Part shown: in pieces, positions 4,420 to 53,741 of the stretch | Numbering within the stretch: the stretch's first letter is position 1 | How the letters are laid out: the number at the start of each line of letters is the position of its first letter | DNA from: Planctomycetota bacterium | Lineage (GTDB): Bacteria; Planctomycetota; UBA8742; UBA2392 | Reading direction: 5' to 3' | Length of the DNA stretch: 64,000 nucleotides | Assembly: GCA_019636195.1 (NCBI GenBank) | Contig: JAHBYA010000016.1 | Span: forward strand, 14,972 to 78,971 | Notes under the pieces: generated by a model | Databases searched by the model: none | The model's input: only the letters and a program-made list of their open reading frames with translations | Told to the model about the DNA's origin: nothing | Translations under genes and position numbers: made by a program

Positions 4420-4450
4420 TGGCGGGAGCACATGGGAATAGAACCCACCT
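4420..4450 (-). repeat. Duplicate of the tRNA-Sec 3' end (att-like scar)
   Basis: 30/31 identical to 4575-4605 (T arm, acceptor 3' strand, CCA). Confidence 0.85.
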
Positions 4451-4574
4451 CGCGACAGTCCGGCGGACTGGCGCGAAAGCGAAGCAGCCCGCACAAAGCC
4501 CGCCTGAAGGCGGGCGACTGCGGGCGTAAGCGGAGCGTCCCGTTCAATGACCGGCGACTTTCGACTATGGAGTT

Positions 4575-4667
4575 TGGCGGGAGCACATGGGAATCGAACC
4601 CACCTGACACTTGCGCGTCACTACGGTTTTGAAGACCGAGAGGCCCACCAGGCGCCTTTCTGCTCCC
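4575..4667 (-). tRNA. selC: tRNA-Sec (anticodon UCA)
   Basis: Anticodon loop CTTCAAA, TGGT D-loop, long variable arm TGACGC-GCAA-GTGTCA, T loop TTCGATT, extended acceptor stem GGGAGCA/TGCTCCC, G73 CCA; close to selA. Confidence 0.95.
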
Positions 4668-4717: not shown

Positions 4718-6628
4718 TTACCGTGAAACGCGCGAAAGCTTCAGCAGACGCGAGATGCGGTCAATGACCACCGTCAACAGTATGATCATCAGCAGGTGGG
4801 TGCTCGCCTTTTCAAACCGGAACCACTCAAAGTTGAAAGTGAAGAAGAAGCCCAGGCCGCCCACGCCGACAATGCCCAGCACCACGCCTGTGCGCACGTT
4901 GCTTTCGAACTGGAAGAAACTGTAGGTCATCCAGTCGCGCCACGACATCGGCCCGGCTGTGTAGGCAAAGCAGGTCATGCGCGAACCCAGGAACGACTGT
5001 TCAAAGCGCCGGTACGGGATGTTATCGACGGTCTCGCTGAAGACGCGCACGAGCACGCCCATGCTGTGCAACGCGATGGCAACGGTGCCGGCCAGCAAGC
5101 CGGGGCCAAAGAACGCGATAAACAGGAACGCCCACATCACCTCCGGTACGCCGCGAGCCACGAGGCCGAGCCCGCGCGCAACAACCATCTGCAACAAGCG
5201 AACAACGCGGGCAATCGGGTGAGGCGCCTCGCCCGTGAACTGTGAACTCTCCAGCATGAACGCCATCGAGTGCGGGTACGTCAGCGCCATTGCGCCCAGC
5301 ACTCCAAGCAGCGTGCCCACAATCGCCATCGCCAACGGGACCGAGGACGACTTAACCACGCGCCACACAAACCACTTGCGCAGCTCAAGCTCCCAGGCTT
5401 CCCAGGCGGCTGGTCTCCAGAAGTCCAGCGGCCCGTACTGCTCGAAGAGTCGCACGTCCTTTCCGGCATCGCGAACCTTCTGCACTTCGGCGGCATCCCC
5501 CATGCCGATCGCGGCGCCGTCAAAGTCCGGCGACAGCAGGTCTTCAAAAAACGCGAGCTTCTTGAGGTTCTCACCTGACGCAAGCTTGGCCAACGGCTCA
5601 AGATAGTTGCGCGTCTGCCCGTCCGGGCCCGAGCTGTTGCCGTAACCCATGTACCACACAGACCAGACAACGACCATCAACGCAAAACCTACACCGATGT
5701 AGCCGCGCGCGAGTTCAGAGCCTGTGCTGCGCGCCCTGACAGCGCGCGGGTGGTTCGGGTCGGTGCGCAGTTGCCGGCGTATGAAGTTGCTCGACAAATC
5801 GGCTGTCAGCGTCAACGCAAGCGTGAAGATGATCAGCGTCGTCACCTTGCCCCAGCCGCCCATCCCGATCTGGTACATGATTTCGGCGCCCAAGCCGCCG
5901 CCGCCCACCGCGCCGATTACGGCGGCGTTGCGGATCGCGCACTCGGCGCGCATCAGCGTGAACGACTGCACACTGCGCGAAGCTAGCGGCCGAATGCCGT
6001 AAAGGAACGTGTTAAGGCGCCCCGCGCCCAGCGCCCGCACCTGCTCGTACTGCCGCGGCTCTACACTGTCCCACAGTTCGCTGTACACCTTGCCCAGGAT
6101 GCCGGTGATGTTCAGCGACAACGCGACCGCGCCGGTGACCGGGCCAAGGCCCAGCGCGGCAACCAGAATGACCGCCCAGGCAAAGTCAGGAACGGCGCGC
6201 AGCACGTCAAGCACCAGGCGGCATGCGGCGCACAATCCGTGCAGCGGCAGGCGCAAAAGCCGCGACAGCAGATTTCTCCCGCCGGCCTCTCCCACACACA
6301 CCGCGCGGCTTGCACCCATCGCCAGCACATAGGCCAGGATCACCGCAATGAAGGTGGCCATGCATGCTGCTGCCAGCGTCTCAAGCGTCAGGTGCCAGCA
6401 GGTCTCAAGCCACTCGGACGAAAGCTCGGGATCTGAAAACGAAACGACCAGCGACCATGCACGCTCGATGGCACGCTCCCGCTTGGCGGAGTCCGTCAAC
6501 GCGGAGAAGTCCCACTCGGCAGCCCAGAACGCGCCCAGCACCAGCACCGCAATCGCAACCAGCGCGGCGAAGTGCCGCCACGGGCGCTTCGTCGCATACC
6601 GGTCGCGGATGACGGGTTCACTTGCCAT
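4718..6628 (-). CDS. PhnE/PtxC-type ABC permease, two permease modules fused
   Basis: Two PhnE-like halves (LRAVPDFAWA...GKVYSE...ECAIRNAAVIGAVGGGGLG and RGVPEVMWA...RVFSE...ESNVRTGVVLGIVGVGGLG). Confidence 0.85.
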   Translation of the reverse strand: MASEPVIRDRYATKRPWRHFAALVAIAVLVLGAFWAAEWDFSALTDSAKRERAIERAWSLVVSFSDPELSSEWLETCWHLTLETLAAACMATFIAVILAYVLAMGASRAVCVGEAGGRNLLSRLLRLPLHGLCAACRLVLDVLRAVPDFAWAVILVAALGLGPVTGAVALSLNITGILGKVYSELWDSVEPRQYEQVRALGAGRLNTFLYGIRPLASRSVQSFTLMRAECAIRNAAVIGAVGGGGLGAEIMYQIGMGGWGKVTTLIIFTLALTLTADLSSNFIRRQLRTDPNHPRAVRARSTGSELARGYIGVGFALMVVVWSVWYMGYGNSSGPDGQTRNYLEPLAKLASGENLKKLAFFEDLLSPDFDGAAIGMGDAAEVQKVRDAGKDVRLFEQYGPLDFWRPAAWEAWELELRKWFVWRVVKSSSVPLAMAIVGTLLGVLGAMALTYPHSMAFMLESSQFTGEAPHPIARVVRLLQMVVARGLGLVARGVPEVMWAFLFIAFFGPGLLAGTVAIALHSMGVLVRVFSETVDNIPYRRFEQSFLGSRMTCFAYTAGPMSWRDWMTYSFFQFESNVRTGVVLGIVGVGGLGFFFTFNFEWFRFEKASTHLLMIILLTVVIDRISRLLKLSRVSR

Positions 6629-7460
6629 CGGTGTCTAAAGCGACTTCATCGAGGTGCATGGCACGGTACTCCGCGCCGTACAGGTCACGCAGCAGTTCGC
6701 GTGTGATGCCGCCCGGCGGACCCTGCCAGAACAGCCGGCCATCGCGGATCGCGATCACCCGTGAAAAGTGGCCGTGCAGCAACTCAAGAGTGTGCAGATT
6801 GACCAGCAGCGTCGTGCCCATGCGACGCGCGATACCTGACAACAGTTCGATGATCTCGCGCCCCAGACGAATGTCCAGCTGGCTGACGGGCTCGTCGGCC
6901 AGCATGACCTGCGGTTTCTGGACCATCAGCCGGGCGATGGCCACTCGCTGCTGTTGGCCCCCCGACAACTCTCCCGGCATCGACCACAGCTTCTCCGCGA
7001 GTTCAACTTCAGCCAGCGCCGAGCGTGCATCCTTCAACTCTTGCGGCCAGAACAGGCTCAACAGCGCTCGCGGCAGCAGCCAGCGTCCGAGCCTTCCCAT
7101 CAGTACGTTGTGCACGACCCGCAAGTGCGGGATCAGGTTGTCGTTCTGGTACAGGATGCCGATCTCGCGCCGGACGCGCCGCAGCGCCGCGCCGCGCAAC
7201 GTGGCAGTGTCGTGCCCCAACGCCCGCACGCGTCCGCTGGTCGGCTTGATCACGGCGGCCAGCAGGCGGAACAACGTGGTCTTGCCCGCGCCGGAAGGCC
7301 CGATCACCGCGACCCGCTCGCCTTCACGAATCTGGAAGGAAAGGTCGTGCAAAGCCTCGACCCGCCCGAAACTCATGCCGGCGTTCGCCAGCTCGAAAAC
7401 ATTCGGCCCGCTGTCGTCGTGCTTTGCGGCGGCTTGGTCGATCGCTGCTGCAGTTTCCAT
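6618..7460 (-). CDS. PhnC-type ABC ATP-binding protein
   Basis: GPSGAGKTT, VHNVLMGRLG, LSGGQQQRVAIAR, LADEPVSQLD; GGAG RBS before ATG 7460. Confidence 0.9.
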   Translation of the reverse strand: METAAAIDQAAAKHDDSGPNVFELANAGMSFGRVEALHDLSFQIREGERVAVIGPSGAGKTTLFRLLAAVIKPTSGRVRALGHDTATLRGAALRRVRREIGILYQNDNLIPHLRVVHNVLMGRLGRWLLPRALLSLFWPQELKDARSALAEVELAEKLWSMPGELSGGQQQRVAIARLMVQKPQVMLADEPVSQLDIRLGREIIELLSGIARRMGTTLLVNLHTLELLHGHFSRVIAIRDGRLFWQGPPGGITRELLRDLYGAEYRAMHLDEVALDTDGK

Positions 7461-7522
7461 TGCCTGCTCCGCGGTAACAGGGGGCGGCCCGCCCGTGCCG
7501 CCCCCCGAAACGCAATACTGCA

Positions 7523-8437
7523 TCAGCTGCCGATATCTACGCCGGACTCCATGACTGCGCGGATACCGTCCCACTCTTTCATGTCGGCCTGCACGAAGCT
7601 GCCGGCTTTGAAGTAGCCGAGGATCTTCTTGCCCTCTTCACTGTTCGGGTCGAGATCCAGCAGTGCCTTGCGAATCTTGCCGATCATCTCGTCACCCAGG
7701 TCCTTGTGGGCCACAAACGAGTAATCGACGTAGGCCGGTGTCTTGTAGATGATCGGCGCCTTGGCCTTGAGGTCTGCACTGGCCTTGTCGTAGCTGGCGT
7801 AGTTCAACGCGCCCACAGCAAAGCTGCCGTCGGCGACTTGCGCCAGCGTCTTGTCGTGGCTGCCGCTGTAGCCCACGTTGTTGAAGGCATCTTCGGGCTT
7901 CTTGCCGGCCTGGGTGGTGAAAAAGTGCCGGGGCATCAGGTGGCCGCTGGTGCTGCCCTTGCTGCCGAACGTGAAGGACTTGCCGCCGGCCTTTTCCGAA
8001 AGCTCTTTCAGGTCTTTCACTTCACCGACTCCGCTGTCCTTATTGGCGATGAAGTACGTGACGAACTTCTTGTCGATGTCGCGGCAGGCCACAACCACGG
8101 CGTTGCCCTTGGTCTGCATGTCTGACTGGACCGTGGTCACTCCGCCCATCCAGGACATGTGCGCCTGGCCGTTGGCAAGCGCGGTGACGGACGCCGCATA
8201 GTTTTCGACGTGCATGTACTCAACTGGAATGCCGATCTTGCCTTCAAGGTACTTGGCGACGTTGCCGAAGTGTTCCTTCAGTTTGTCGGCGTTGTCGTCG
8301 GGGATGGCGGTGATAATCAGCTTGTCAATCTTCTTGCCGCCCCCGCTGCCGGCCTTGTTGGCGTCGTTGCCACCGCCGCAGGCGGCCATGCTGAAAATGC
8401 CCGCCATCGCGAGCGCCAGAAATAGAAAACGCTTCAT
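7523..8437 (-). CDS. PhnD/PtxB-type substrate-binding lipoprotein, resembling the putative selenate ABC transporter binding-protein family
   Basis: Lipobox MAAC; AIPD, NYAASV, WMGGVT, RDID, FTFGSKGSTSGHLMP, GYSGSHD, GALN motifs. Confidence 0.8.
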   Translation of the reverse strand: MKRFLFLALAMAGIFSMAACGGGNDANKAGSGGGKKIDKLIITAIPDDNADKLKEHFGNVAKYLEGKIGIPVEYMHVENYAASVTALANGQAHMSWMGGVTTVQSDMQTKGNAVVVACRDIDKKFVTYFIANKDSGVGEVKDLKELSEKAGGKSFTFGSKGSTSGHLMPRHFFTTQAGKKPEDAFNNVGYSGSHDKTLAQVADGSFAVGALNYASYDKASADLKAKAPIIYKTPAYVDYSFVAHKDLGDEMIGKIRKALLDLDPNSEEGKKILGYFKAGSFVQADMKEWDGIRAVMESGVDIGS

Positions 8438-8753
8438 CTTGCTCTCCGTTTCGTAAATGGCGGTGCACCGACCGCCGGTCAAATCTTGGTTTGAACAGAA
8501 AAGCCGGGTTTGAAAATCAGCGCCGGGGGCCCGCAGGGCACGCTCAGGCGCTACCGACCGGCAGCGAGGTTATCGCAGTCAGGAAAAGCCGCTGCCCACG
8601 GGCAACAGGCCATGGGCTCAGGTGAAGCCCGGCATCAGCGGCGTGGCCGCCTTGAGGATATGCGCTCTTCCCAGCACGGGCTGCATGCTACACGTTGGGG
8701 GTGTGTCGGCAAGGACAAACCGCCTTTATTGCCCAACCATGCTTGCCGATTGC

Positions 8754-8781
8754 AAAGCCCCGGGCCAGCGCCCGGGGCCTT
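8754..8781 (-). terminator. Intrinsic terminator after atpA
   Basis: GCCCCGGGC/GCCCGGGGC inverted repeat with TTT on the minus strand. Confidence 0.6.
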
Positions 8782-8804
8782 GATACGACTTGGGTAGATT
8801 CACC

Positions 8805-10508
8805 TTACGCGTTCGCGCCTACCGGCTGTTGTTTGGCCTGCTTTAGCTGGTCATTCACGACCTTGGCCGCTTCCTTCAGCGTGGCAACGATCTCGTCGGT
8901 CAGGTCCTTCTTCTCGCGGATCGCGGTCATCTGGGCGGCCTTGTTCGTGGTCAGGTACTCGAGGTAGCTGGCCTCGAACTTCTTGACCTCGTCAATCGGC
9001 ACCTCGTCCAGCATGCCGTTGGTCGCGGCCCAGATGATTGCCACCTGGTTCTCGACCGGCAGCGGCTCGTACAGCCCCTGCTTCAGCACTTCGACCAGCC
9101 GCTGACCGCGGGCGAGCTGGGCCTGGGTGGACTTGTCCAGGTCGCTGCCAAACTGGGCAAACGCTTCCAGTTCGCGGAACTGGGCAAGGTCAAGGCGCAG
9201 GCGGCCGGCGACCTTCTTCATGGCCTTGATCTGCGCGTTGCCGCCTACGCGCGACACGGAAATGCCGACGTCGATGGCTGGGCGGGTGTTCGCGTAGAAC
9301 AGCTCGGGCGTCAGGTAAATCTGGCCGTCGGTAATGCTGATCACGTTGGTCGGGATGTACGCCGACACGTCGCCGGCCTGCGTCTCGATCACCGGCAGCG
9401 CGGTCATGCTGCCGCCGGTCTGCGGGTGCATGCGCAGCTCGTGGCCGTCGCCGGCGGCCTTGAGGGCGTGCTCCGCTTCTTCCCATTCTTCGGGTGTACG
9501 GTTGCCGTAGCGTTTGCCGTCCACGCCGCTGGTGGCGTCCCAGGGCGCGTCCTTGCGCACAACGATGTACTCTTCCTTCAACTTGGCGCTGCGTTCCAGC
9601 AGGCGGCTGTGACAATAGAAGATGTCGCCGGGGAAAGCTTCACGGCCGGGCGGACGGCGCAGCAGCAGCGACATCTGGCGGTACGCGACGGCCTGCTTGG
9701 AAAGGTCGTCATAGATGCACAGCGTGTCACGGATCTTCTGCGGTTTGTCGGTGGCGTACATGAAGTACTCAGCAAACGCGGCGCCCGCGTACGGCGCGAG
9801 GTACTGCAGCGGCGCGGGGTCCTGCGCGTTGGCGCTGACCACGATGGTATAGTCCATCGCGTTGTACTTCTCGAGCGTTGCCACCACCTGGCGCACGGTG
9901 CTGGCCTTCTGGCCGATAGCGACATAGACGCAGACCACGCCCTTGCCCCTCTGGTTGATGATCGTGTCGATGGTGACAGCGGTCTTGCCCACCTCGCGGT
10001 CGCCGATCACCAGCTCACGCTGGCCGCGGCCGACAGGGATCATCGCGTCGATGGCCTTGATGCCGGTCTGCAGCGGCTGCTTGACGGGCTGGCGCGCTTC
10101 AATGCCGGGCGCCTTGAACTCGATCAGCCGGCTGGCGGCGGCCTCAATCGGACCCTTGCCGTCAATGGGCTGGCCCAGCGGGTTGACCACGCGGCCCAGG
10201 AAGCCTTGGCCGCAGGGCACGCTCAGAATGCGGCCGGTGCGCTTGACCTGTTGGCCCTCGCGGATGGTCAGGAAGTCGCCCATGATCACGATGCCGACCG
10301 AGTCTTCTTCAAGGTTGAAGGCCAGGCCGAAGGCGCCGTTTTCAAACTGCACCATTTCGTTGGCCTGTACGTTCTCAAGGCCGTAAACGCGGCAGATGCC
10401 GTCGCCGACTTCCAGCACGGTGCCGACTTCCTCCATGCCGATTTCTTCGCCGAAGGACTCGATCTGCTTGCGGATGACTGATGTGATTTCGTCTGAGCGC
10501 AATTCCAT
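8805..10508 (-). CDS. atpA: F1 ATP synthase subunit alpha
   Basis: [45 protein letters not shown] motifs. Confidence 0.97.
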
Positions 10509-51984: not shown

Positions 51985-52149
51985 TCCCTGTGCCGATCGA
52001 TTAAGCAACGCGACCGAGTCTCGTTTCGATTCCGTTATGCCGCTTCGCGGCGCAGTTGGCCCTACCAGCCGACGCGGAATACAATTGAGACCGCGATGCT
52101 TGAGGACGCCTTTGGGGGCCGGTCGTGAACCTTGGAGGAGGCCACGACC

Positions 52150-53433
52150 ATGTTGTACCGAATCGCCCTGATTTTCCTGTTGCCTGCCTGCGCCTGGGCG
52201 CAGATCACCTATGACCTCTCGCCGGGGTCCGTACCAGTTCCGTCATGTGAAGTTGCAGCGGGCACAAGCAACGCAATTGCGTTGTCCTGCGAACTAATGA
52301 ACAACTCGGGTGTGTCCCAGGTTGCCTATCTGAATGAGCTGCACCTGTCCGTCACCGGCACGGCACAGGGCACAGACGTGACCGCCCTGCATGTCTATCA
52401 CACGCGAACCTGGAGCGGCGGTGCAACCACGACCCAGTTCGTCGGCACCTGCACGCTTGCAAACCCTTCCCTGACAGGTTTGACCACCTTGCTTGGCACT
52501 TCGCTCCTGAACACCATTGACGTGATCGTGGACTTCAGCCCGGCAGCGGTTGCCGGGCGCACGCTGCGCATCTCTGTCCAGGCTGTCGGCATCGTCACCA
52601 ATGGCCACACAATTGTCGGCGCCGATGTGGACGGCGGCCTGTTGACGATCGGTTCCAACGGGCCGGCCTCGGTGCTGGTGCACCCCCAACCGACCGGCGG
52701 CAGCGGCGACTACGTCGGCGACATTGACCCAGCCGGCGAATTGCTGACCTACACGCTGCACAACACCGGCGGGCAGACGCTGGACGTTCACTTCGGCCCG
52801 ACGCTGCTGGCCGCCGGCCAGTCAATCGGCAGTTTCAGCGTCGTGCTGCAGCCCGCCGCCCAGGTGGCGCCGGGCGGCAGCACCACGTTCTCGTTCATGG
52901 TCACGCCGATCAGCACCGGATCGGTGACTTTCAGATTTCGGATTGCGGTCAGCGACCCCGTGGCACCAAACTGGGTCAGGACCGTGACTGTGCAGCGCTG
53001 GGTTGCGGGCGGACCTGCGCCGCGCCTGGTGGTAGTGGGACAACCGCAGGACGGAAACACCAACCAGCCGCTTGGCCCGATTGAGGTGCGGGCATGGAGC
53101 GAAAGCGACCACCTGATCGACACTTACAACCAGCCGATCAGCGTAAGCATCAAGTCCGGCCCGGCGGGCGGCACGCTGGCTGGCCAGACAACGCTGACGC
53201 CGGTGGTGGGCATACTGACGTTCGGTCTGTCTTGCACCAAAGCCGGGACCTATGTGCTGGAGTTCAGCGGCTCGGGCCTGCGTAGCGGGGAAAGCCAGCC
53301 GATCGTTGTTTCAGGCGGCGGTGGCGCCAGCGGTGGCGGCGGCCCGGGCGGCGGCTGTGCAACCGGCGTTGCGGCAAGCCCGTTGGCGCTGGGCCTGTTG
53401 CTGCTGTTCCGCCGCAAGCGCGAACGTCGATAG
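52150..53433 (+). CDS. Secreted Ig-like domain protein with C-terminal GC-TM-basic sorting signal
   Basis: Signal peptide, beta-rich Ig-like segments, C-terminus GGGCATGVAASPLALGLLLLFRRKRERR. Confidence 0.75.
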   Translation: MLYRIALIFLLPACAWAQITYDLSPGSVPVPSCEVAAGTSNAIALSCELMNNSGVSQVAYLNELHLSVTGTAQGTDVTALHVYHTRTWSGGATTTQFVGTCTLANPSLTGLTTLLGTSLLNTIDVIVDFSPAAVAGRTLRISVQAVGIVTNGHTIVGADVDGGLLTIGSNGPASVLVHPQPTGGSGDYVGDIDPAGELLTYTLHNTGGQTLDVHFGPTLLAAGQSIGSFSVVLQPAAQVAPGGSTTFSFMVTPISTGSVTFRFRIAVSDPVAPNWVRTVTVQRWVAGGPAPRLVVVGQPQDGNTNQPLGPIEVRAWSESDHLIDTYNQPISVSIKSGPAGGTLAGQTTLTPVVGILTFGLSCTKAGTYVLEFSGSGLRSGESQPIVVSGGGGASGGGGPGGGCATGVAASPLALGLLLLFRRKRERR

Positions 53434-53499: not shown

Positions 53500-53527
53500 T
53501 TGACAGGTCAATGCGGTGTGCTACTTT
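53500..53527 (+). promoter_or_regulatory. Sigma70-type promoter
   Basis: TTGACA (53500-53505), 16 nt spacer ending TGc, TACTTT (53522-53527). Confidence 0.7.
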
Positions 53528-53544
53528 GCCGCGAGAGGATTCAG

Positions 53545-53595
53545 ATGCAGCGCAATAACAATAATCGTGCCTTGGCTTGTCGCGGAGCGGCATAG
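53545..53595 (+). CDS. Asn-rich attenuator leader peptide MQRNNNNRALACRGAA
   Basis: GAGAGGA RBS, ATG 53545, AAT AAC AAT AAT at 53554-53565, TAG 53593-53595. Confidence 0.8.
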   Translation: MQRNNNNRALACRGAA

Positions 53596-53634
53596 GTCGA
53601 TTGTTGTGAAAAGACCTTCAGCGCCCTGCGACAA
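53577..53634 (+). promoter_or_regulatory. Antiterminator helix of the attenuator
   Basis: TTGTCGCGGAGCG (53577-53589) pairs 12/13 with CGCCCTGCGACAA (53622-53634), the terminator 5' arm and loop; inner stem AGGTC/GACCT. Confidence 0.75.
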
Positions 53635-53654
53635 CGCAGGGCGCTTGTGTTTTT
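53620..53654 (+). terminator. Attenuator terminator
   Basis: AGCGCCCTGCG-ACAA-CGCAGGGCGCT then TGTGTTTTT, ending 11 nt before the tRNA. Confidence 0.85.
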
Positions 53655-53665
53655 GCGCCGGCCAT

Positions 53666-53741
53666 AGGGGTGTGGTGTCAATTGGTAGCACGCCCGGTTG
53701 TTACCCGGGAAGTGGGGGTTCGAATCCCTCCGCCCCTGCCA
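53666..53741 (+). tRNA. tRNA with GUU (Asn) anticodon, atypical body
   Basis: Acceptor AGGGGTG/CGCCCCT, D stem GTGT/GCAC, anticodon arm CCCGG-TTGTTAC-CCGGG, 4-nt variable loop, T arm GGGGG-TTCGAAT-CCCTC, G73 CCA. Confidence 0.9.

Follow-up and report, generated by a model that had tools for sequence, protein, structure and literature searches.

A predicted asparagine-codon leader attenuator precedes a conserved second tRNA(GUU) gene in a family of uncultured Planctomycetota

Attenuators are well known as regulators of amino-acid biosynthesis and of some synthetases. In those of the leader-peptide type, as in the trp, his, leu and thr operons, a promoter precedes a short translated open reading frame (ORF) in which codons for the sensed amino acid abound, followed by antiterminator and terminator hairpins that exclude each other and by a run of U. 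A T-box is said to control the tRNA-dependent amidation operon of Clostridium acetobutylicum, to judge by the title of a 2012 report by Saad et al. In bacteria that possess asparaginyl-tRNA synthetase (AsnRS) and GatCAB but neither AsnA nor AsnB, the only route to asparagine (Asn) runs on tRNA, and their lone bacterial-type aspartyl-tRNA synthetase (AspRS) aspartylates tRNA-Asn, according to PMC4206432; the regulation of tRNA-dependent amino-acid synthesis by enzymes that also serve other tRNAs is treated as an open question in PMC2330236. We analysed a 64,000-nucleotide (nt) stretch of DNA, hereafter the window, from a Planctomycetota bacterium (Genome Taxonomy Database, GTDB, lineage UBA8742; UBA2392), which spans positions 14,972-78,971 of the forward strand of JAHBYA010000016.1 (contig C8) in the 3.9-Mb assembly GCA_019636195.1 (26 contigs, 94.9% complete). 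It carries a tRNA gene with anticodon GUU, hereafter tRNA(GUU), preceded by a predicted attenuator with Asn codons. An earlier note on this DNA had proposed that the tRNA has features of non-Asn identity and may deliver aspartate (Asp), or another amino acid, to Asn codons under starvation.

Two tRNA genes were called in the window by ARAGORN, namely tRNA-Sec at 4575-4667 (-) and tRNA-Asn(gtt) at 53666-53741 (+). The latter, with its anticodon at 53700-53702, matched the Rfam family RF00005 over 53666-53738 with 57.4 bits, against a gathering score of 29. Its acceptor stem comprises A1-U72, G2-C71 to G5-C68, U6.G67 and G7-C66, followed by the discriminator G73 and an encoded CCA; the D stem is GUGU/GCAC with a D loop of 9 bases, the anticodon loop is UUGUUAC (U32, C38), the variable loop consists of the four bases AAGU, and the T stem is GGGGG/CCCUC. 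The features that the earlier note had read from the sequence (A1-U72, G73, C38, 4-base variable loop and GUGU/GCAC D stem) were all recovered in this cloverleaf.

Orthologues were sought at the DNA level in the 23 genomes of a single family of uncultured Planctomycetota, and the loci obtained were passed to ARAGORN. The A1-U72 tRNA(GUU) with its leader was present in 20 of the 23; the genomes without the tRNA (G011, G016 and G017) are metagenome-assembled genomes (MAGs) with completeness values of 88, 76 and 87%, respectively. Two forms were distinguished. Form 1, to which the window copy belongs, occurs in 16 genomes (genera g1, g2, g3, g4 and g6), and form 2 in four (g5 and g7); the latter has the same acceptor stem, G73 and GUU and differs in its D stem (GCUC/GAGY), A38 and 5-base variable loop, with a body ~87% like that of canonical tRNA-Asn. 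A1-U72 is thus found in 20/20 orthologues and C38 in 16/20. All seven acceptor pairs are invariant in form 1, the acceptor stem is constant over the 7 genera, and the anticodon loop and GUU are invariant in the orthologues. The 16 form-1 orthologues (13 distinct) were subjected to a covariation test, in which standard pairs occupied 273/273 cells of the cloverleaf, five pairs of the anticodon and T stems showed double, compensatory changes (18 cells), and the observed score was reached by none of 500 shuffles. The second tRNA(GUU) is conserved, foldable and under selection. When one genome from each of 185,579 species was scanned for the exact pattern, 19 stretches were returned, 18 of them labelled as MAGs of Planctomycetota or Planctomycetaceae and one as 'uncultured bacterium'. 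The order comprises 25 genomes, and neither of the two from the sister family gave a match at E 1e-6, a search that did not extend to analogues with other acceptors outside the family.

The leader upstream of the tRNA contains all parts of an attenuator on the same strand. A promoter-like site at 53500-53527 (+) comprises a perfect -35 box TTGACA (53500-53505), which lies within the palindrome TTGACAnGTCAA, a 16-base spacer and a -10 box TACTTT (53522-53527); the -35 box and a TAnnnT -10 box were aligned in 16/16 form-1 leaders. It is followed by a Shine-Dalgarno-like GAGAGGA at 53533-53539 (+), 5 bases 5' of the leader start codon and with a GAGGA-like block at the same position in the aligned leaders. 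The leader ORF at 53545-53595 (+) starts with ATG at 53545 and has 16 codons and a stop at 53593-53595 (MQRNNNNRALACRGAA), with four consecutive Asn codons (AAT AAC AAT AAT) at 53554-53565. The 5' strand of the antiterminator (region 2; 53577-53589, +) covers leader codons 11-15 and pairs with 53622-53634 in the minimum-energy folds. This antiterminator 3' strand doubles as the 5' arm of an intrinsic terminator at 53620-53655 (+), which consists of an 11-pair hairpin (53620-53645; nine G-C pairs, loop ACAA) followed by TGTGTTTTTG, and tRNA(GUU) starts 20 bases 3' of the hairpin. The full leader folded as the antiterminator (-57.3 kcal/mol, z = -3.3), and the segment 3' of the leader stop folded as the terminator (-29.7 kcal/mol, z = -4.06). 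As the naked leader RNA prefers the antiterminator, termination would need a ribosome at the stop codon.

A consensus scanner called no promoter here, the -10 box matching only 3/6 bases, and found one terminator, equal to the chance expectation from shuffles; the case for an attenuator is therefore carried by conservation. An intrinsic terminator lies 15-154 bases 5' of the tRNA in 20/20 loci, and the leaders of all 20 orthologues hold 2-6 Asn codons within 16-22 codons. AAT accounts for 49 of the 68 leader Asn codons; in the genome, where Asn makes up 2.7% of the codons, it is the rarer codon, with a share of 0.22 in a rough set of long open frames. Pairing of the terminator amounts to 98.3% over the 16 form-1 sequences, and two of its pairs show changes on both sides; the core pairs of the antiterminator are 100% paired in each. 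In one genome (G001), a substitution in the shared arm is matched by changes at both of the positions with which it can pair, in the terminator and in the antiterminator. As read from these alignments, the arrangement corresponds to a classical leader-peptide attenuator that would sense Asn; the attenuator that the earlier note had placed before the tRNA was thereby upheld, with promoter, ribosome site, Asn-codon ORF, antiterminator and terminator all present and conserved. We regard the predicted gating of transcription of a conserved second tRNA(GUU) by an Asn-codon leader as established, whereas the amino acid that this tRNA carries is what we infer.

No second full copy of the leader was found in the genome by a leader-profile search. 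The promoter segment of the profile matched upstream of other tRNA genes, namely an array on contig C24, a tRNA-Leu gene on C21 and a tRNA-Arg gene on C4. The palindrome TTGACA(G/C)GTCAA, which includes the -35 box, is conserved in 16/16 form-1 leaders (53500-53511 in the window) and may be a candidate binding site for a regulator of stable-RNA promoters. Runs of at least 3 Asn codons in short frames occurred at nine places, none with a start codon and a terminator, in a crude scan that also missed the true leader, whose stop-to-stop frame is longer. Upstream of the other tRNA genes of the assembly (65 ARAGORN calls), no convincing leader with cognate codons was detected; 15 of the 65 upstream regions passed a loose leader filter, and the others among them, with Arg-, Ala-, Pro-, Ser-, Leu-, Lys- and Gly-rich frames, were taken as G+C-rich chance and rejected.

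The same census placed a canonical tRNA-Asn on contig C22, with U1-A72, C2-G71, a 7-base D loop, the anticodon loop CUGUUAA (A38), a 5-base variable loop and G73. The gene in the window is thus a second, non-canonical tRNA(GUU), as the earlier note had supposed, and the objection that it might be the only tRNA(GUU) of the genome does not apply. ARAGORN also called a tRNA-Asn on contig C25; at 92 bases, with mismatches in its stems and without CCA, this third call was taken as false. Canonical tRNA-Asn was recovered at full length in 19/23 genomes and partially in two more, and the housekeeping copies of the lineage keep U1-A72 and A38 in 19/19 full-length cases, in agreement with the contrast that had been drawn. 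Their body is nearly invariant; in the acceptor stem, compensated variation occurs at pairs 4-7, with U1-A72, C2-G71 and C3-G70 fixed. By this pattern of change, canonical tRNA-Asn and the A1-U72 tRNA(GUU) are both selected, in different ways.

The enzymes of both routes to Asn-tRNA were found in the genome. AsnRS scored 483.8 bits against a cut-off of 414; a single bacterial-type AspRS, LysRS and GatB were present, as were one GluRS and one GluQRS, and there was no GlnRS. The earlier note had asked for asnS, a non-discriminating aspS and gatCAB; AsnRS, a single AspRS and GatB are what the genome offers. A weak fourth class II match was HisRS, and as the genome has two class Ib genes only, there is no extra TrpRS; no additional class IIb or Ib synthetase was found in the genome and no dedicated synthetase beside tRNA(GUU). 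Neither AsnB (none over the cut-off) nor AsnA was found in the genome. Among the 23 family genomes, AsnRS exceeded the cut-off in 22 and an AsnB-type gene in 10. A few bases separate the AsnB-like genes from the genes before them, several of which are glycosyltransferase-like as judged from translation, and an Asn leader was present in 0/11 of the regions upstream of those in the relatives. On contig C12 (L009, ~6300-9922), asnS, a HAD-family hydrolase gene and gatB are arranged head to tail, such that the direct and indirect routes adjoin. The GluQRS (tRNA glutamyl-Q34 synthetase) gene lies at C12:327850-328647 (L090). The usual substrate of GluQRS is the anticodon loop of tRNA-Asp, which form-1 tRNA(GUU) resembles in G34, U35, A37 and C38.

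Identity elements were taken from the tables of a 2023 identity review and from primary papers. The complete bacterial AsnRS set of that review (G73, G34, U35, U36 and A37) is present in tRNA(GUU), which makes the label of non-Asn identity too strong. Of the two bases that had been read as Asp elements, C38 stands as an element of Asp identity, and G73 is equally the discriminator of tRNA-Asn in the same tables. Form 1 has the AspRS elements G73, G10, G34, U35, C38 and the minor G2-C71, form 2 the same without C38; the elements C36 and G1-C72 are absent, with U36 and A1-U72 in their places. A non-discriminating AspRS tolerates U36. The antideterminant of GatCAB, an extra D-loop base 20A/20B, is missing, the D loop ending in GGUA in 20/20 orthologues as it does in tRNA-Gln and tRNA-Asn, with extra bases at this point in the tRNA-Asp and tRNA-Glu of the genome; the D loop of form 1 does have an additional base, located towards its 5' side. 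Within the genome, the D arms most similar to that of form 1 are those of the two tRNA-Gln (13.5 and 11.5, next best 9.5), with which form 1 has the 4-base variable loop in common.

The contribution of the T stem to EF-Tu binding was calculated as ddG with averaged values of the Schrader-Uhlenbeck table, which was possible for 18 of the 20 orthologues, the remaining two having pairs absent from the table. It amounted to +0.6 to +1.4 kcal/mol in 18/18 and to +1.0 to +1.4 in 13/18, compared with +0.4 for canonical tRNA-Asn, +0.8 and +1.1 for the two tRNA-Gln, +1.0 for tRNA-Trp, -0.7 for tRNA-Glu and -1.1 for tRNA-Asp. Published class means for Asp and Asn differ by 1.6 kcal/mol, with that of tRNA-Asn at about +0.5, and such T-stem pairs keep Asp-tRNA-Asn off EF-Tu (Roy et al., PMC1904265). 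In view of these values and pairs, the T stem would suit a tightly binding residue like Asn rather than Asp. G50.U64, which destabilises more than any other pair of the model, is retained in 13/16 form-1 genes, and 7/20 orthologues combine A-U or U-A at 51-63 with G-C or C-G at 49-65, which excludes Asp-tRNA-Asn from EF-Tu; the Asp-like G51-C63 is found in 13/20.

From these data, we tentatively favour, at somewhat short of even confidence, a reading in which tRNA(GUU) is induced by Asn starvation, aspartylated and then amidated to Asn-tRNA, and so forms a regulated part of tRNA-dependent Asn synthesis. A strong tRNA-type promoter would drive the 16-codon leader with its four Asn codons. With Asn-tRNA plentiful, the ribosome would reach the stop codon and cover region 2, the terminator would form, and transcription would end ~20 bases before the tRNA; with Asn-tRNA scarce, the ribosome would stall at the Asn codons, region 2 would pair with the 5' arm of the terminator, and the polymerase would enter tRNA(GUU). 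In a cell with no AsnA or AsnB, Asn would be made on tRNA by the single AspRS and GatCAB, with AsnRS re-using free Asn. As Asp-tRNA and Gln-tRNA likewise require AspRS and GatCAB, the tRNA would be the only Asn-specific part that can be regulated. Once induced, it would be aspartylated by virtue of G73, G10, G34, U35 and G2-C71, with C38 in addition in form 1; amidation by GatCAB would be favoured by the weak first pair, the lack of an extra D-loop base and, in form 1, the tRNA-Gln-like D arm and 4-base variable loop; and the very weak EF-Tu T stem would withhold the Asp intermediate from the ribosome. The outcome would be Asn-tRNA reading AAY codons.

Several observations weigh against amidation of this tRNA. 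The earlier note had named U1 as the main determinant of GatCAB, which is borne out by published mutant data: U1 is the major determinant in the two systems tested, where G1-C72 costs 100-fold and U1-G72 6.4-fold. This U1-A72 determinant is missing from tRNA(GUU), A1-U72 itself not being among the published mutants found. In the survey of PMC4206432, every genus dependent on GatCAB for Asn-tRNA (186/186 and 98/98) has a tRNA-Asn with U1-A72, and the GatB of the present genome keeps the 3-10 turn that reads the first pair. Among its housekeeping tRNAs, U1-A72 is limited to tRNA-Gln and canonical tRNA-Asn, and elsewhere it occurs only in three tRNAs of an accessory array, which makes A1-U72 atypical of a GatCAB substrate. 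The missing U1, with an A-U instead of a U-A first pair, is the main argument against the favoured reading, and we offer no explanation for it. The need for a second GatCAB substrate is also not obvious, as canonical tRNA-Asn already looks like one, and C38 is not universal, since form 2, with A38 and a canonical body, occurs in four genomes. The AspRS gave near-equal scores with the solved structures of a non-discriminating (4wj3, 474 bits) and a discriminating enzyme (1c0a, 471 bits). A likeness of the acceptor stem to that of tRNA-Asp (5/7 match) was considered and dropped, as tRNA-Pro, tRNA-Val and tRNA-Gly score the same. Seven RNA-labelled runs hold part of the window; in the four examined, the contigs represent a relative's version of the locus, with 45-62 differences over 0.8-1.8 kb, and their ends near the tRNA are assembly breaks, with loose ends that read as other tRNAs, from which transcription is not readable.

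In other readings, the switch is the same and the tRNA has another fate. It could be charged directly by AsnRS as a demand-driven spare tRNA-Asn, with A1-U72 keeping GatCAB out, which we consider rather doubtful. The complete AsnRS set as tabulated in the review, the presence of AsnRS in nearly all family genomes, the canonical-like body and A38 of form 2, and a weak T stem that fits Asn as the esterified residue are all in keeping with it, as is the restriction, in the data of PMC4206432, of tRNA-Asn without U1-A72 to genera that have AsnRS. An extra tRNA would, however, be of no help when free Asn is short, and a non-discriminating AspRS, expected in the absence of AsnA and AsnB, would aspartylate tRNA(GUU) as well. 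Moreover, C38 in 16/20 orthologues adds an Asp determinant and presumably removes the A38 context of t6A37 in form 1, which we count as a further point against direct charging. Modified t6A37 is listed in the Asn identity set in the review tables. Finally, an acceptor stem invariant over 7 genera, against variable pairs 4-7 in canonical tRNA-Asn, points to a sequence-specific partner, which AsnRS is not known to be. The proposal of the earlier note, that the tRNA is aspartylated but not amidated and that a starvation for Asn or amide nitrogen is bypassed conditionally by Asp insertion at Asn codons, draws on the absent U1, on C38, G10, G73 and G2-C71 as fitting AspRS, on the Asn attenuator, whose induction confined to Asn-tRNA shortage would limit the damage, and on the Asp-like G51-C63 of 13/20 orthologues; precedents are the Asn-to-Asp errors of mycobacteria (PMC11415595) and the mistranslating tRNAs of Streptomyces (PMC10404621). 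Against these stand a T stem that falls in the weakest class in each of the 18 orthologues calculated, G50.U64 in most of form 1, the Asp-excluding combination in 7/20, a D loop without the GatCAB antideterminant, A38 in form 2, the lack of an adjoining dedicated synthetase, and the accurate GatCAB route at hand. We therefore judge Asp delivery unlikely, and equally improbable is the starvation-gated recoding that it would entail, in which Asn codons would be read as Asp until supply returns, with induction governed by the very codons misread.

A further reading is a role outside elongation, either as an aminoacyl donor or, in uncharged form, as a decoy by which the signal of starvation at Asn codons would be amplified. 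The predicted affinity for EF-Tu at or below the weak end of the Asn class (+1.0 to +1.4 in 13/18, class mean about +0.5) would agree with such a role, and EF-Tu outliers were proposed as donors outside translation in the same published analysis. We nevertheless hold it to be very unlikely, given that the T-stem values overlap those of the tRNA-Gln and tRNA-Trp of the genome, no transferase gene is conserved alongside, and the anticodon loop with GUU is invariant, as in a decoder. Charging by another synthetase, TrpRS or a non-discriminating GluRS, was suggested by the acceptor stem, in which A1-U72, G2-C71 to G5-C68 and G73 meet the whole acceptor set of the Trp row in the review table. The resemblance to bacterial tRNA-Trp that the earlier note had seen therefore holds for the published set, and fails for the genome's own tRNA-Trp, whose acceptor strand is ACGGCGG. 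The T stem of tRNA(GUU) is identical to that of this tRNA-Trp (C21:267505-267580), and the two are the only housekeeping tRNAs with A1-U72 and G73. As regards GluRS, the D arm and variable loop are nearest to those of tRNA-Gln, and form 1 has a U11-A24, U13.G22 core, which we take to be GluRS elements. The Glu row of the table, for its part, lists 'tertiary interactions' and an absent base 47, and form 1 has no base 47. Both enzymes, however, depend strongly on the anticodon according to these tables, and GUU shares nothing with the CCA of Trp and only U35 with Glu and Gln; with two class Ib genes, no extra TrpRS and a form 2 devoid of the Gln-like core, we rate charging of this kind as highly unlikely. 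Scarcely credible, lastly, is that the attenuator serves the downstream gene and that the tRNA is incidental or decaying. In the window, the tRNA lies between a surface protein gene upstream and a cardiolipin synthase gene downstream, which starts ~80 bases later with no terminator after the tRNA; the same holds for G013. In the relatives, by contrast, an NHL-repeat protein gene lies upstream, and assorted downstream genes, often on the opposite strand, differ in most of the 20 loci, which leaves the tRNA as the only constant target of the attenuator; its perfect pairing with compensatory changes likewise speaks against decay.

Some further features of the genome were recorded. The end of the ORF upstream of the tRNA (52132-53433, +) resembles a C-terminal sorting signal, with a Gly-rich stretch followed by a Cys, a hydrophobic helix and an Arg/Lys tail; the sole Pfam match of this ORF is a weak one to CARDB. 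On contig C24 (64677-66949), 12 tRNA genes form a tight one-strand array with a TTGACAnGTCAA-type promoter upstream; several of them have unusual first pairs (U1-A72 in the Val, Arg and Gln tRNAs, A1-U72 in that for Ile) and divergent bodies, and the array looks like an accessory or mobile tRNA set. For eleven of the 65 tRNA genes, the final 20 bases of the gene (T loop to CCA) recur unchanged 114-142 bases downstream, in many cases together with some flanking sequence, and a conserved element of ~90 bases with two G+C-rich hairpins lies between tRNA and copy at all these loci. The unit in the window spans ~4420-4574 (-), downstream of tRNA-Sec (4575-4667), ten further tRNA loci of the genome have one, and tRNA-Lys(UUU) has two. 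The window copy of tRNA(GUU) has none, and 1-3 units accompany four of its A1-U72 orthologues (L022 in G012, L018 in G014, L014 in G019 and L032 in G022). The unit matched no Rfam family at the gathering threshold and resembles a small repeat or mobile element with tRNA 3' ends as its target.

The locus can be set beside four described systems. With the trp, his, leu and thr attenuators it shares the complete set of parts, from promoter to U run. It differs in its target, a tRNA reading the sensed codons instead of a biosynthetic enzyme or synthetase, and in that the naked RNA prefers the antiterminator, such that termination requires a ribosome at the stop codon. In the full-text literature searched, a scope that excludes most subscription journals and supplements, we found no description of a tRNA gene under a leader-peptide attenuator, and a 2024 review on tRNAs in mistranslation contains neither 'attenuat' nor 'GUU'. 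A tRNA gene as the target of an attenuator, controlled through the codons that it decodes, would constitute a new wiring. If, as we favour, tRNA(GUU) feeds AspRS and GatCAB, it would answer the question of how a pathway with shared enzymes is regulated, with a tRNA acting as an inducible biosynthetic cofactor; if Asp is what it brings to the ribosome, it would be the first case in which the expression of a mistranslating tRNA depends on a shortage of the correct aminoacyl-tRNA. Under either reading, the invariant A1-U72 acceptor offers a direct test of how the first pair is read by bacterial GatCAB, AspRS and AsnRS.

As in the C. acetobutylicum T-box operon, which we know by title, a shortage of charged tRNA-Asn would switch on the indirect route to Asn-tRNA; there, a riboswitch is said to sense uncharged tRNA and induce the enzymes, whereas here a translated leader would sense stalling and induce the tRNA substrate. 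Dedicated mistranslating tRNAs (tRNA-ProX) are reported from Streptomyces and Kitasatospora (PMC10404621), and Asn-to-Asp errors from mycobacteria when GatCAB is limiting (PMC11415595). Like these cases, tRNA(GUU) has a body that indicates one amino acid and an anticodon that indicates another, which may be of benefit under stress. Unlike tRNA-ProX as described there, it has no adjacent synthetase, and its anticodon, discriminator and T stem fit Asn, the mismatch being confined to the GatCAB and AspRS elements. The closest counterparts in gene content are dual-route bacteria such as Bdellovibrio and Staphylococcus, which, according to PMC4206432, likewise have AsnRS, a single bacterial-type AspRS and GatCAB and lack AsnA and AsnB. 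They possess one U1-A72 tRNA-Asn, to which the Planctomycetota family adds a second tRNA(GUU), with A1-U72 and a predicted regulation of its own.

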